Source: a virus. Taken from it: a stretch of 39,910 nt of DNA. This document shows positions 1 to 39,910 of this stretch, one piece after another (position 1 is the first letter of the stretch; each line of letters opens with the position of its first letter). Below the pieces are notes generated by a model. It made no database searches, had not been told where the DNA came from, and worked only from the letters and a program-made list of their open reading frames with translations. Both the position numbers and the translations under genes were made by a program. The stretch is taken from UHGV virus genome UHGV-1354558. One strand, given 5' to 3'.

Positions 1-247
1 TGCGAAAGCTGAAAATGATGCTCTTCGGCGCAAGCTTGATAATGGTGGTCGGGTGTTCGTCAAAGGAAAATGCCCTGTGCCATCCTCAGACGAAACCTCC
101 AGCGCCTCCGGCATGGGCAATGATGCCACCGTCGAACTCTCTCCAGTTGCTGGACGAAACGTTCTCGGTGTCCGGGACGGAATTATCCGCGACCAAACAG
201 CACTGAGAACGCTTCAGGAATACATCAGGACGCAATGCCTTCGATGA
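1..247 (+). CDS. Rz: Rz i-spanin, 3' portion (continues in frame from 39690..39910 across the window junction)
   Basis: Frame 2 is open from position 2 to the TGA at 245-247. Joined to 39690..39910 it gives 468 nt (155 aa) with a lambda Rz-like N-terminus ([30 protein letters not shown]...). Embedded Rz1 frame is present. Confidence 0.8.
   Translation, partial: AKAENDALRRKLDNGGRVFVKGKCPVPSSDETSSASGMGNDATVELSPVAGRNVLGVRDGIIRDQTALRTLQEYIRTQCLR
15..206 (+). CDS. Rz1: Rz1 o-spanin lipoprotein embedded in the +1 frame of Rz
   Basis: ORF MMLFGASLIMVVGCSSKE... has a signal peptide with lipobox VVGC and a proline-rich stretch PPAPPAW, as in lambda Rz1. The true start may be the ATG that spans the window junction (39910/1-2). 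Confidence 0.7.
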   Translation: MMLFGASLIMVVGCSSKENALCHPQTKPPAPPAWAMMPPSNSLQLLDETFSVSGTELSATKQH

Positions 248-421
248 TAGCGATAATTTTACTCATCATCCTTCACATCTGGCTCTGTAGACAGGGTGGT
301 GATCACTTCTGGAGTGAATCCAGATTAAACATCTCATTGCTGATGCTTGAAGTTGAGCATCTGGCGCGCGGTAAGGGGCTGCGTTGAGATAAGAGCCAGT
401 TCATTACAAATACCAGGATTT

Positions 422-447
422 AGCCTCGCATTCGCGGGGCTTTTTAT
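422..447 (+). terminator. intrinsic terminator downstream of lysis genes
   Basis: Hairpin AGCCTCGC-attc-GCGGGGCT (one G-U pair) followed by TTTTTAT. Confidence 0.5.
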
Positions 448-589
448 ATCTGAATTTCACAGCGCATCTCACGCGCATATTAACGAGAGCCTTTCAGTAA
501 GCGAGCCTGAGAAATGCCGTTATAGGTGGCGACCTCTCTCGGGCGGCTTTTCTGTGAGACAGGCTCACTTTCTAAAAGGTAAAGACGCT

Positions 590-1108
590 ATGAATCATCA
601 ATTGGCTAATCTCGATTTCCGGGACATGGTGGTTGTTTCTGGTGATCGCGTGATCACAACCTCCCGCAAGGTAGCAGCTTACTTCGACAAGCAGCATCAC
701 CACATCATTCAGAAAATCGAAAAGCTAGACTGTTCGGATGAATTTCTAACCAGCAACTTTTCGCGGGTTACCTATGAACACAAGGGTAATCAGTATGTTG
801 AATATGAAATTTCCAAAGACGGCGCGATGTACATCATCATGTCGTTTACCGGCAAAAAAGCTGCCGCCATCAAAGAGGCGTTTATCAAAGCATTTAATTG
901 GATGCGTGACAGGCTGATGGAGATGGCTCACTCATACCAAAGAGAGCACAACGAGTTAATGCTGGAGTTCATGAAGGAAAAGGATGTTGCCAGTATGTCA
1001 GGACGCTTGCTGAACCGCTGGGGCAGGATCAAAAAACCTCAACTCATAGCAAGAATCGAAAGGCTTGAGCAGCAGGCGCAAATATCGATCCCCGGACTGC
1101 CAAAGTGA
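590..1108 (+). CDS. rha: Rha-family phage regulatory protein
   Basis: Translation from MNHQLANLDFRDMVVVSGDRVITTSRKVAAYFDKQHHHIIQKIE... looks like the Rha N-terminal domain. The ORF track begins at 347, but the first 81 codons look like non-coding read-through, so the ATG at 590 is preferred. Confidence 0.65.
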   Translation: MNHQLANLDFRDMVVVSGDRVITTSRKVAAYFDKQHHHIIQKIEKLDCSDEFLTSNFSRVTYEHKGNQYVEYEISKDGAMYIIMSFTGKKAAAIKEAFIKAFNWMRDRLMEMAHSYQREHNELMLEFMKEKDVASMSGRLLNRWGRIKKPQLIARIERLEQQAQISIPGLPK

Positions 1109-1460
1109 CCATTCCAAAGCCAATCTACGGGTGGGCTTGATAATGAAACCGTGATTTACATCCCCACAATCCGGGTATGTAAAAGATAGTTCAGGCGAGA
1201 ACAGATTTAACTAAGTCTGTGCACCACCAGTTGCGGCAGTACCACGAAACAACCCAAGCCAGTAAGTGGGGAAATAACACTGGCAGCCACTGAAAGATGA
1301 ACCTCCTGCCTTATGGCAAAAAAGATTCTTTGTGGTGGCGGACTGATGGAAAGACATCGGTTATTGCAGAGGCCATTCAATGAGTGGTCTCGACAATGGC
1401 TTATAGCCTACACGGGATAACTTAACTGATATCCCTTTTAACGGATAAACGTAGCCAACA

Positions 1461-1703
1461 ATGGCAGAGATTATTCCCATGACTGAAGAACAGAAATTCC
1501 AGTTAGAGATTTACAAACTGGTCATGAACCAGAACGCAGCCGCAGAGGAAGCATTTCAATTCATTGGCACTGACGAGCTGAAGCTTGAGCTATTCAAAAT
1601 TCACTTCCAGTCAGGCGGCGCTAATTCAGATATCACGACCCGCACTATCGAAGCGGTGCGTAAATCGAAGGAAGCGTTAGACCTGTTCACCACCGGAGCA
1701 TGA
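1461..1703 (+). CDS. hypothetical 80-aa protein upstream of terminase (P22 orf80 position)
   Basis: 80-aa ORF immediately upstream of small terminase; P22-type genomes carry an 80-codon ORF here. Confidence 0.5.
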   Translation: MAEIIPMTEEQKFQLEIYKLVMNQNAAAEEAFQFIGTDELKLELFKIHFQSGGANSDITTRTIEAVRKSKEALDLFTTGA

Positions 1704-1738
1704 TGCTCAACCTGAAATAACGATTAAGTGAGATGAAT

Positions 1739-2227
1739 ATGGCAGCACCAAAGGGCAACCGATTCTGGGAGGCCCGCAGTAGTCATGGGCGAAACCCTAA
1801 ATTCGAATCGCCTGAGGCGCTGTGGGCTGCTTGTTGTGAATACTTCGAGTGGGCTGATGATAACCCGCTATGGGAGGGTAAGGTATTTTCATATCAGGGA
1901 GAAATAATTAAGGCTAATGTCCCTAAGATGCGAGCCATGACTATTTCAGGATTGTGTACCTTCCTTGATATCACCAGGCAAACATGGGGAACCTTCCGGT
2001 CAATGGAAGGTTTTTCTGACGTCACATCACGAGCGGAAGACATCATCTACGACCAGAAATTCTCTGGCGCAGCCGCTGACCTTCTCAACGCTAATATCAT
2101 CGCCCGTGATTTGGGCCTCAAAGAGCAGTCGCAAGTTGAAGACGTGACACCTGATAAGGGAGATCGCGATAAGCGACGCTCTCGTATCAAGGAGCTATTC
2201 AACCGTGGAACTGGACGCGATTCTTGA
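1739..2227 (+). CDS. terminase small subunit (P22 gp3-like)
   Basis: Starting at the second ATG gives 162 aa ([22 protein letters not shown]...), the length of P22 gp3. Position is immediately upstream of and overlapping the large terminase. Confidence 0.75.
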
Positions 2228-37883: not shown

Positions 37884-37925
37884 CAGCATGATTGCCACGG
37901 ATGGCAACATATTAACGGCATGATA

Positions 37926-37954
37926 TTGACTTTTTGAATAAAGTTGGGTAAATT
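37926..37954 (+). promoter_or_regulatory. late promoter PR' (-35 TTGACT, 17-nt spacer, -10 TAAATT) with qut-like region
   Basis: TTGACT-N17-TAAATT followed by TTGACTCAACGATGG matches the lambda PR' and Q-utilization region. Confidence 0.7.
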
Positions 37955-37990
37955 TGACTCAACGATGGATAAATGCACTCGTTAAATAAA

Positions 37991-38018
37991 GCCCTGAGTT
38001 AATAGCTCGGGGCTTTTT
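37991..38018 (+). terminator. intrinsic terminator close to PR' (tR'-like)
   Basis: Hairpin GCCCTGAG-ttaatag-CTCGGGGC (one G-U pair) followed by TTTTT, about 30-55 nt downstream of the predicted start. Confidence 0.6.
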
Positions 38019-38909
38019 CATTTCTGCAATCCGGTCAGGACTTTCGAGTTAATGCGTGCTGCACGACACGTTGACACTCATACGCGAGAGTCCTGAGCCA
38101 GATTGAAGGCTATCAGGTAAGGGCATATCGACGCACTGATAGGGCTGGATTGGAAGATCATTCAGAGACCCGGCAGACAGATGTGTTCTTTCCGATGGTT
38201 TTCGTAAGCGACTTTGCGGTTTTTTAGAAACTGATCACAAAGGTAAATGCAAACGAAGAAATGTATCTGGCCGTAGCTTAACCGCTAAACACCAGTGAGG
38301 TATTCCAGTTCCTCATCAACGAATCTGGCGCACTGGCCCGGTGTGATTAATAATGGGCACACAACAGGTAAGAGCATTAAAGAACTGGCAAAGAGCTTAA
38401 CGGTCTGCGAAAGCATTTCTTAGTGGCACAACTGGCCGGTACAACTGAGTGCTCTTTCCGGTGTGGTGAATGCGCAGGCTGATGCGCGCAGGAGAGCTTC
38501 GGAAGAACAAGGTGCCTGTATACAAGCCGGAGATCAGCGCCGGCCACCACAGCCAAATCCACCCAGAGCAAAACCGTTGTTCATCCTTACCATTCCCTCA
38601 GTATTTTGGGCTACAACCCTCAGCCCATTTTTTAAAGCGTACTTCCACCAAGAACCAGACCTAACCAACTCATTGCTGACACTCTGTGGATACGGTTGTC
38701 TAGTGCGCTTTAAAAAAGAAAACCCAGCATCAATGGCTGGGCTTCGTGATATGAGCGGCATGTATTGTTGGCGCAATCCACGCCTGATTTGCTCATGAAT
38801 GCGGTCACGAACAAACCCGTTACAAATCAACCGTAACCCGGATTTGTTCGAGCGACCATATCCATAATTCCTAATTAAATAGAGCAAATCCCCTTATTGG
38901 GGGTAAGAC

Positions 38910-39233
38910 ATGAAGATGCCAGAAAAACATGACCTGTTAGCCGCCATTCTCGCGGCAAAGGAACAAGGCATCGGGGCAATCCTTGCGTTTGCAATGGCGT
39001 ACCTTCGCGGCAGATATAATGGCGGTGCGTTTACAAAAACAGTAATCGACGCAACGATGTGCGCCATTATCGCCTGGTTCATTCGTGACCTTCTCGACTT
39101 CGCCGGACTAAGTAGCAATCTCGCTTATATAACGAGCGTGTTTATCGGCTACATCGGTACTGACTCGATTGGTTCGCTTATCAAACGCTTCGCTGCTAAA
39201 AAAGCCGGAATAGAAGATGGTGGAAATCAATAA
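38910..39233 (+). CDS. S: holin S (lambda type, dual-start motif)
   Basis: 107 aa: [34 protein letters not shown]... matches lambda S, including the Met1-Lys2-Met3 dual start. Confidence 0.9.
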
Positions 39234-39693
39234 TCAACGTAAGGCGTTCCTCGATATGCTGGCGTGGTCGGAGGGAACTGATAACGGACGGCAGAAAACC
39301 AGAAATCATGGTTATGACGTCATTGTTGGCGGAGAGCTATTCACTGATTACTCCGATCACCCTCGCAAACTTGTCACGCTAAACCCCAAACTCAAATCAA
39401 CAGCCGCCGGACGCTACCAGCTTCTTTCCCGTTGGTGGGATGCCTATCGTAAGCAGCTTGGCCTGAAAGACTTCTCTCCCAAAAGCCAGGACGCTGTGGC
39501 ATTGCAGCAGATTAAAGAGCGTGGCGCTTTACCGATGATTGATCGCGGTGATATCCGTCAGGCTATCGACCGTTGCAGCAATATCTGGGCTTCACTGCCG
39601 GGGGCTGGTTATGGTCAGTTCGAGCATAAGGCTGACAGCCTGATTGCAAAATTCAAAGAAGCTGGCGGAACGGTCAGAGAGATTGAGGTATGA
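39217..39693 (+). CDS. R: endolysin R (lambda-type lytic transglycosylase)
   Basis: 158 aa: [39 protein letters not shown]... matches lambda R. Confidence 0.9.
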
Positions 39694-39910
39694 GCAGAGT
39701 AACCGCGATTATCTCCGCTCTGGTTATCTGCATCATCGTCTGCCTGTCATGGGCTGTTAATCATTACCGTGATAACGCCATCGCCTACAAAGAGCAGCGA
39801 GATAAAAAAGTCAGTGAGCTGAAGCAGGCGACCGCCACCATTACTGACATGCAGCAACGCCAGCGTGCTGCTGATGTACTCGATGCTAAATACACGAAGG
39901 AGTTAGCTGA
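39690..39910 (+). CDS. Rz: Rz i-spanin, 5' portion (continues at 1..247)
   Basis: [40 protein letters not shown]... runs to the window end without a stop and continues in frame at position 1. Confidence 0.85.

Follow-up and report, generated by a model that had tools for sequence, protein, structure and literature searches.

The viral record UHGV-1354558, a stretch of 39,910 nucleotides (nt) that is analysed here at its full length and called the window, is very probably a whole phage genome, written as a circular map that was opened arbitrarily inside the spanin gene Rz. The phage is a temperate lambdoid one of Escherichia coli, P22-like (Lederbergvirus-type) and with a predicted short tail. 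Its two ends, which do not overlap, join without a gap and restore the genes that they interrupt; the phage attachment site attP (P-O-P') is intact, and neither attL nor attR lies at the ends. The window, which has 47.3% G+C and contains zero N, holds each module once, without duplicated or foreign blocks, and its size is comparable to that of HK620 (38.3 kb), Sf6 (39.0 kb), IME10 (39.6 kb), Dewey (40.4 kb) and P22 (41.7 kb).

Closure of the genome at the ends of the record

An initial annotation, made from the letters of the window, had proposed that the Rz frame runs off the end of the record and resumes at its start. When the end and the start were joined, a single continuous Rz open reading frame (ORF) was indeed obtained on the plus strand, from the ATG at 39690 through 39910 (the 5' part, open to the window end) and on from base 1 to the stop codon at 245-247 (the 3' part, 1..247), without a frameshift or stop codon at the junction. 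This ORF of 468 nt encodes 155 amino acids (aa); its start codon overlaps the stop codon of the endolysin gene R (ATGA), and its product, the i-spanin, carries an N-terminal transmembrane segment. It has the same length as HK620 Rz (17319-17786), which maps to window 39690 through 247 and is 90% identical. Rz1, the o-spanin lipoprotein embedded in Rz, had likewise been suspected to start across the junction, and its ATG is composed of A39910, T1 and G2; the gene, in the +1 frame of the plus strand (39910 through 1..206), encodes a lipobox protein beginning MRKLKMMLFGASLIMVVGC and has its stop at 206. The nucleotide alignment with lambda (NC_001416) stops at lambda 46186, which is where the annotated Rz1 coding sequence of lambda starts and which corresponds to window 39910.

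Comparison with HK620 (NC_002730, Lederbergvirus HK620) by blastn paired window 36427-39910 with HK620 14061-17539 and window 1-594 with HK620 17540-18133. The two blocks are consecutive at 17539/17540, and therefore no base is missing or duplicated at the join. Furthermore, an artificial 3-kb junction sequence aligned as a single block in 98 complete E. coli genomes (best match, 100% coverage and 97.8% identity), and an exact 38-mer spanning the join was present in at least 120 IMG/VR contigs. In all 10 of the 10 chromosomal relatives that were retrieved through the exact gp3 protein, the order Q-holin-endolysin-Rz lies directly upstream of gp3.

The claim that the gene order closes on itself was confirmed by gene-by-gene comparison with HK620, P22, Sf6 and lambda (tblastn), together with PHROGs and Pfam. 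The P22-like virion cluster gp3-gp2-gp1-gp8-gp5-gp4-gp10-gp26-gp14-gp7-gp20-gp16-gp9 is colinear for 13 of 13 genes across 1739-19334, each assigned by tblastn, Pfam or PHROG, and the rest follows the lambdoid order: cI-cro-cII with tripartite OL/OR, N with nutL/nutR, O/P with iterons, the nin genes, Q with pR'/qut, and S-R-Rz/Rz1. The short-tailed morphology of the virion is predicted from this gene set. Essential genes are full length when compared with their homologues, and none is truncated or frameshifted.

The attachment site and integration into thrW

The initial annotation had also described one complete P22-like genome with a tRNA-Thr attachment core beside the integrase gene, a description that agrees with what we found. 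Positions 22462-22507 on the plus strand match the 3' 46 nt of the tRNA-Thr gene thrW at 44 of 46 positions and are also the corresponding P22 attP stretch; the two substitutions compensate each other, converting a U-A pair of the T-stem into G-C. This piece was rejected as a tRNA gene, because only the 3' fragment is present (14.9 bits with the tRNA model, below the gathering score), and is assigned as the attP core. The arrangement gtrA, 290 bp, tRNA-Thr 3' core and int is contiguous. Here a tyrosine recombinase adjoins the 3'-end core of tRNA-Thr, as in P22-type modules that integrate into thrW: the integrase (22522-23682, minus strand) matches Pfam Phage_integrase (PF00589, E=1e-34) and shows 54% aa identity to P22 Int, and the excisionase (23559-23906, minus strand) matches Pfam HTH_17 and shows 42% aa identity to P22 Xis.

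To follow the occupancy of this site, a predicted attL was built from the 5' half of thrW and the window sequence running from the core into int. It was found in 157 E. coli genomes at 100% coverage and approximately 99% identity, where it is annotated as tRNA-Thr and site-specific integrase. In E. coli 19451123, an integrated relative has the order proA-thrW-int-xis-...-cI-...-Q-S-R-Rz-gp3-...-tailspike-gtrCBA, which is the window rotated to open at the attachment core. Since attP is intact in the window and the joint between lysis and packaging genes falls at its ends, the record represents an excised or vegetative circular map and not a prophage cut from a chromosome.

Attachment junctions of the attP type also occur within chromosomes. 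In E. coli ES9, E10 and C1, hybrid junctions combine the right arm and core of one element with a second integrase directly behind, a sign that prophages or islands occupy thrW in tandem, and it follows that an attP-containing stretch alone is no proof of an excised circle. The window could on these grounds be one repeat unit from a tandem thrW double lysogen, a replication concatemer or a larger replicon, and not a free circular record. Such a unit would need both cuts to fall on precisely homologous positions one unit apart, leaving neither overlap nor gap nor host DNA; unit ends of this exactness are the product of a circularised assembly and not of an arbitrary cut, and the content would still be one complete genome. 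We regard this explanation as highly improbable and retain the reading of a complete circular map.

Two circular records are of interest beside these chromosomes. NZ_CP141750.1 (47,948 bp) and NZ_LT599830.1 (41,305 bp), separate records in E. coli assemblies, have the same intact attP/int region and look like excised phage genomes that were submitted as additional replicons. In the strain of the former, the chromosome, NZ_CP141749.1, also bears attL and attR forms.

Packaging, gene 3 and the pac site

The small terminase gp3 (1739..2227, plus strand; Pfam GP3_package, E=9e-31) shows 82% aa identity to P22 gp3, and the large terminase gp2 (2205..3704, plus strand; 499 aa, headful type) shows 93%. 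On the basis of this homology to the P22-type terminase, headful packaging would be expected, and with it virion DNA that is physically permuted and has redundant ends. Given the headful of roughly 43.5 kb in P22, this redundancy would come to about 3.5 kb. The description of the window as circularly permuted holds in one sense only, namely that the linear record starts wherever its circular map happened to be cut; permutation of the virion DNA itself is a prediction from the terminase.

The gp3 protein differs little from P22 gp3 at either end but has diverged in its central third, especially across window 1850-2040. The 22-bp P22 pac site was confirmed to occur once inside P22 gene 3, and it is absent from the window when up to 3 mismatches are allowed. 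The position aligned to P22 pac is 2006-2027 and reads GAAGGTTTTTCTGACGTCACAT. Because the central third of gene 3, which holds pac in P22, has been replaced, a different pac specificity is implied. The exact gp3 protein is very common, occurring in 14,779 index blocks of public assemblies.

The altered pac also bears on whether the sequence might be complete and the element nevertheless defective or cryptic, excising without producing infectious virions. Function is not readable from sequence, pac differs from that of P22, and immI is reduced to a Mnt-like gene, all of which would be compatible with such an element. In opposition, the virion, packaging, lysis, regulatory and replication genes are all intact and full length, and this gene 3 allele is shared by very many close relatives, some of them plaque-forming isolates (Dewey, IME10, APC_JM3.2). 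Of the alternatives considered, we hold a defective element to be the least probable, and an intact genome is the reading that we carry forward.

Mosaic structure and comparison with known phages

The initial annotation had called the genome a mosaic in which lambda-type Q, S, R and immunity-region proteins are combined with P22-type structural genes. Alignment of the window with four reference phages supports mosaicism, each phage covering 7-42% of it: HK620 42% (at 93% nucleotide identity), P22 40% (79%), Sf6 26% (95%) and lambda 7% (93%). The parts that stand are the lambda type of Q, S and R (100, 98 and 99% aa identity, respectively) and the P22 type of the stretch from terminase to coat, in which gp3, gp2, portal, scaffold and coat show 82, 93, 77, 86 and 73% aa identity to P22 and at most 33%, or no match, to HK620 and Sf6. 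The immunity region and the stretch gp10-gp7 require revision. The cI, cro and cII proteins are 100, 98 and 100% identical to those of HK620 versus 43, 63 and 53% for lambda, and the immunity stretch 29767-31864 has 98.5% nucleotide identity to HK620 7751-9847; by this identity, the immunity specificity is that of HK620, and the immunity-region proteins are lambda-like in architecture only. The gp10, gp26, gp14 and gp7 proteins show 99, 98, 96 and 99% aa identity to Sf6 and are of the Sf6/HK620 type, so that the structural arm, too, is a P22/Sf6 mosaic. GtrA, GtrB and Int show 78, 85 and 54% aa identity to P22, and the tailspike past its head-binding domain and the gtrC-type gene had no match among the reference phages compared.

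HK620 resembles the window in overall gene order and size and in its operators and nut sites, which are colinear with those of the window; the two also have the P helicase, the genes from ninB to Q, S, R and Rz/Rz1 in common, at 90-100% aa identity. It differs in having an Sf6-type terminase, portal and coat (at most 33% aa identity or no match to the window), an IntS/argW-type integration module, an O-antigen polymerase-like gene at the position where the window has gtrABC, another tailspike receptor-binding domain and another recombination module, and in lacking a 250-nt element that the window carries in its pL/N leader. P22 (AF217253) has the same virion gene order (3-2-1-8-5-4-10-26-14-7-20-16-9), a Q protein that is 96% identical, the same Int type (54% aa identity) and an attP core from the same thrW 3' end. 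The two genomes nevertheless share only approximately 78-79% nucleotide identity, over 40% of the window only. They are unlike at pac and in the middle of gp3, have different immunity, replication (18/12) and lysozyme genes, and differ in the specificity of the tailspike; the window, unlike P22, has no arc/ant immI and no sieA homologue.

Sf6 (NC_005344) shares with the window a knobbed needle of 282 aa and gp10, gp14 and gp7 at 96-99% aa identity, as well as S and R, an O-type initiator (99% identical) and the helicase (99% identical). It is unlike the window in its terminase, portal and coat type, in the presence of oac in place of gtr, in IntS/argW integration, in a phage 21-type Q, in tRNA genes downstream of Q and in a 434-type immunity. 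Lambda has the same pR' hexamers, NinE and NinF and the lambdoid regulatory architecture, but the window has none of the lambda head and tail genes and no cos, and the two cI proteins share only 43% identity.

Within the phage collection (INPHARED, August 2025), the window was matched best by Dewey (PQ850600), APC_JM3.2 (MG197996) and IME10 (NC_019501), in which the arm from terminase to gp16 is 96-97.5% identical at the nucleotide level. Dewey also resembles the window in its 875-aa gp16 with an SLT domain and in its RecT/Mu Gam-like module. Over the whole genome, coverage multiplied by identity reaches 49.5% for Dewey and 42% for APC_JM3.2. All three phages differ from the window in their tailspikes, in lacking a gtr cluster, and in their integrases, immunity and replication genes.

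Occurrence in public collections and the possibility of a chimera

No record of the phage collection and no complete RefSeq E. coli genome covers at least 80% of either half of the window, and with a best coverage multiplied by identity of 49.5% (Dewey), no phage reaches the level of the same species, at least 95% over the full length. Stretches of the same phage were found in independent sequencing runs. Contigs of SRR33527615 reproduce 2077-8309 at 100% and 9372-22491 at 99.99%, the latter stopping inside the attachment core, as expected for a lysogen, and a contig of SRR5677797 reproduces 16121-24407 at 100% and crosses the intact attP. Independent public assemblies thereby reproduce 53% of the window (2077-8309 and 9372-24407) at 99.99-100%. 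An IMG/VR contig, 2571042732_000001, proved to belong to a different phage, being 96-98% identical in patches and having another gene where the window has Rha.

Several points weigh against the conclusion that the window is one complete circular genome. An independent contig of the same phage across 39910/1 was not found in public assemblies, the junction being matched there by relatives at 97-99% identity. Contigs retrieved with Rha were only about 1 kb long, those retrieved with the portal ended at 2077, and the exact gp3 was so common that it had no discriminating value. The analysis covered the sequence record itself, from which circular coverage and terminal redundancy can only be predicted. 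P22 pac is not conserved, and the start of packaging is only predicted by alignment. Moreover, without a record that matches end to end, about half of the mosaic joints rest on the window sequence alone.

The last of these points would be explained if the window were an in-silico chimera of two or more co-resident lambdoid or P22-like prophages, joined by an assembler through conserved segments that they share; this particular mosaic would then not occur in nature. Long stretches of lambdoid modules are alike at 95-99% identity, a well-known pitfall for assemblers, and it is at repeats of this kind that Logan contigs of the phage end, namely in gene 3 at approximately 2077, near 8309 and in the attachment core; the absence of any record covering at least 80% of either half fits the same explanation. 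Novel combinations of modules are, however, the norm in this phage group, and the switches of best relative fall at gene or module boundaries without truncating or frameshifting an essential gene. In addition, the 53% reproduced at 99.99-100% in independent runs comprises the virion genes, tailspike, gtr genes, attP, int and the first early genes. We therefore consider a chimera, which would concern the half not reproduced in this way, very unlikely, about as unlikely as the excised repeat unit discussed above, and favor a single complete phage genome.

The phage is a new mosaic member of the well-known P22/HK620-like lambdoid coliphages and, by its sequence, an ordinary one. It is a further instance of the module shuffling long documented for the P22-like group and raises no new question. 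Its value lies mainly in annotation, as a complete temperate P22/HK620-like coliphage that has the immunity of HK620, an integration module for thrW, a putative Gtr seroconversion cluster and a tailspike of a rare kind.

Tailspike and putative O-antigen modification genes

The tailspike gp9 (17205..19334, plus strand, with its start mapped from HK620) comprises a head-binding domain and a beta-helix receptor-binding part (Pfam Head_binding, Beta_helix). The head-binding domain is of the P22 gp9 type (PF09008, E=1.2e-66, residues 17-129 of the 725-aa ORF), and the tailspike family, phrog_8846, carries no assigned function. The receptor-binding part, together with part of the downstream gene, was found in 2 of 5,426 complete E. 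coli genomes, FDN-9 and FDN-24, which are chicken isolates that contain it in a degraded prophage. Its best relative in IMG/VR has 93% aa identity and the next approximately 65%. A 60-mer from the tailspike was matched exactly in one IMG/VR contig, whose identity is only 96.8%.

Downstream of the tailspike gene, a probable Gtr operon is encoded on the minus strand. It contains gtrA (21809-22171; Pfam GtrA_DPMS_TM, PF04138; 78% aa identity to P22 GtrA) and gtrB (20892-21812; Pfam Glycos_transf_2, PF00535; 85% aa identity to P22 GtrB), and the third gene (19372-20892) fits gtrC by position, polytopic topology and low G+C. The gtrC-type product has 506 aa with approximately 10 transmembrane segments and a C-terminal soluble domain of approximately 140 aa, and its gene has 32% G+C; no Pfam or PHROG match to the product was obtained. 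Public assemblies contain this very protein in 30 index blocks, and in every case gtrAB and a P22-like tailspike lie beside it. This rare tailspike/gtrC pair may serve work on O-antigen host range.

Proposed life cycle

The gene content suggests the following course. The lambda-type Q protein would antiterminate pR' transcription through S-R-Rz/Rz1 into the packaging and virion genes; because pR' transcription would run in this way, the lysis and packaging genes must adjoin, and the window ends belong together. The P22-type gp3/gp2 terminase would package DNA by the headful mechanism from a pac inside gene 3, and the virion DNA that results from such packaging is permuted, with redundant termini, and assembles into a circle. 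O-antigen would be recognised by the tailspike. In the lysogen, the HK620-type cI repressor would keep pL and pR off, the tyrosine integrase would have recombined the attP core, the tRNA-Thr 3' end, with thrW, and gtrABC would glucosylate the O-antigen. We infer viability, host serotype and Gtr activity from these assignments.

A candidate structured element in the pL/N leader

Compared with IME10 and HK620, whose flanks are 98-100% identical, the window carries an insertion of exactly 250 nt (29517..29766, minus strand). Of everything in the window, only this accessory element might be worth pursuing experimentally. It lies directly 3' of the nutL boxB hairpin on the pL transcript and upstream of N, and in the window it consists of a Shine-Dalgarno sequence and a mini-ORF, ATG GTG CAC TAA, followed by conserved hairpins. 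The element is 99.8% identical in two Stx2c phages and approximately 90% identical in the Hafnia phage yong1, and it is also present in mEp213; in none of these records does it have a feature annotation of its own. It occurs in 54 of the 5,426 E. coli genomes, with one copy per genome, and a 21-mer of it was found in 55 IMG/VR contigs and, among species-representative genomes, in Hafnia, Leclercia, Chimaeribacter, Pseudocitrobacter, Citrobacter, Buttiauxella, Tatumella and Erwinia.

An alignment of 41 distinct homologues from Enterobacterales prophages was examined. All 41 copies begin with AGGAGG and a mini-ORF of 1-4 codons (mostly ATG GTG CAC TAA) or the stop codon of the upstream gene, and the stop codon of the mini-ORF or gene lies 1-12 nt before the first hairpin. 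RNAalifold predicted 9 helices, in which 99% of the cells were paired; the element also contains long invariant blocks. Covariation comprised 7 pairs with 26 cells changed on both sides, as compared with 2.5 and 3.1 in shuffles, and none of 500 shuffles reached the observed values; slid controls gave 1-6 cells. The covariation is concentrated in two hairpins, most other helices being invariant and hence uninformative. The single-sequence fold is also uninformative (z = -0.41), so that support for the structure is comparative only. The gene downstream is usually an arginine-rich N-like antiterminator, of which at least 5 sequence types were seen.

Rfam 15 gave no match to the element even at E<=10 (391 nt searched), and no description of it was found in the papers searched. 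Two assignments were rejected: a MITE (miniature inverted-repeat transposable element) or insertion sequence remnant, since the element is single-copy in each genome and always in a prophage leader context, and Pas, AgvB or another known prophage small RNA, since Pas genes sit near Q and holin. The comparative fold makes the element a candidate cis-acting structured leader RNA. With appreciable doubt, we suggest that it may be an undescribed family of such RNAs, in which the folding of the N leader could be tied to a terminating ribosome, thereby setting N translation or the access of Rho or RNase; alternatively, the element could act as an immediate-early anti-defence RNA. The nearest known parallel, perhaps no more than an analogy, is presumably offered by the two-codon 'bar' minigenes of the lambda pL operon.

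Remaining genes and regulatory sites

The curated annotation of HK620, being colinear with the window, served to place the regulatory sites. In the virion cluster, which is on the plus strand, the terminase genes are followed by portal gp1 (3705-5870; 77% aa identity to P22), scaffold gp8 (5884-6795; 86%) and coat gp5 (6795-8090; 73%), and then by the head completion and ejection block gp4, gp10, gp26, gp14, gp7, gp20 and gp16 (8274..16258), assigned by aa matches to Sf6 and by Pfam Inj_translocase and SLT. This block includes gp10 (8873-10291; 99% aa identity to Sf6), the knobbed needle gp26 (10291-11139; 98%), gp20 (12299-13630) and gp16 (13631-16258). The gp16 protein has 875 aa with an N-terminal SLT lytic transglycosylase domain and P22 gp16, by its coding sequence coordinates, 609 aa; P22 gp16 aligns to only 17% of the window protein, and the 875-aa form is present in Dewey and also in a Logan contig.

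Between gp16 and the tailspike gene, 16261..17116 is a remnant of the immI/sieA region without an arc or ant gene. It holds, on the minus strand, a Mnt/Arc-like repressor (16817-17116; 49% aa identity to P22 Mnt) and a lipoprotein ORF (16261-16782; phrog_6067, which has no assigned function). The latter shows the lipobox MKKSLLIIPLLLVGC from Met13, has 161 aa counted from Met13, gave no Pfam match and occupies the position of P22 sieA; it is a candidate superinfection-exclusion or moron gene.

The early-left operon (23997..29324, minus strand) comprises ea genes, DUF2737, a Mu Gam-like gene (26601-27089), RecT (27067-27978), a cIII-like gene and N (29025-29324), assigned by homology to the reference phages and PHROGs. 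It is followed by the HK620-type immunity region (29769..31820, with genes on both strands), which was mapped from the HK620 annotation and includes nutL, an hkaS-like gene and nutR. Within it lie pL/OL1-3 (29849-29920, by HK620 mapping), cI (30416-31132, minus strand), OR3-1 (31143-31208), cro (31239-31433, plus strand) and cII (31542-31820, plus strand).

All further genes up to the window end are on the plus strand. The replication region (31855..34319) contains the O-type initiator (32003-32893; 99% aa identity to Sf6 gp43), inside which a repeat search identified six 11-bp iterons (32388-32486), and the DnaB-type helicase P (32883-34319; 100% aa identity to HK620 P). The nin region (34319..37263; 93-99% aa identity to HK620) encodes NinB (35411-35821), NinE, NinF, a YbcO-like protein, RusA (36716-37078) and NinH. 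The late regulator Q (37260-37883; 100% aa identity to lambda Q) begins the Q-pR'-qut region (37260..38018, by HK620 mapping), in which a promoter scan and HK620 mapping placed pR' at 37926-37954 (TTGACT-17-TAAATT). Holin S (38910-39233; 98% aa identity to lambda S) and endolysin R (39217-39693; 99% aa identity to lambda R) precede Rz.

ARAGORN and Rfam detected no tRNA and no RNA family in the whole window. The Q-S spacer (37884-38909, 1 kb) accordingly has no tRNA genes, unlike that of Sf6 and of the FHI_NMBU_03 prophage. An ORF of 111 aa in this spacer (38463-38798) was rejected as a gene and is probably non-coding, as it has no PHROG match and overlaps the tQ terminator annotated in HK620.

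Two genes, both on the plus strand, lie between lysis and packaging. The DUF2560 small protein (1461..1703; HK620 hkbM/P22 ORF80) shows 99-100% aa identity to its counterparts in HK620, P22 and Sf6. The other, an accessory gene, encodes a Rha-family regulator (584..1108; phrog_518, E=8e-80), and relatives of the phage hold Rha/KilA-N genes at the same position.

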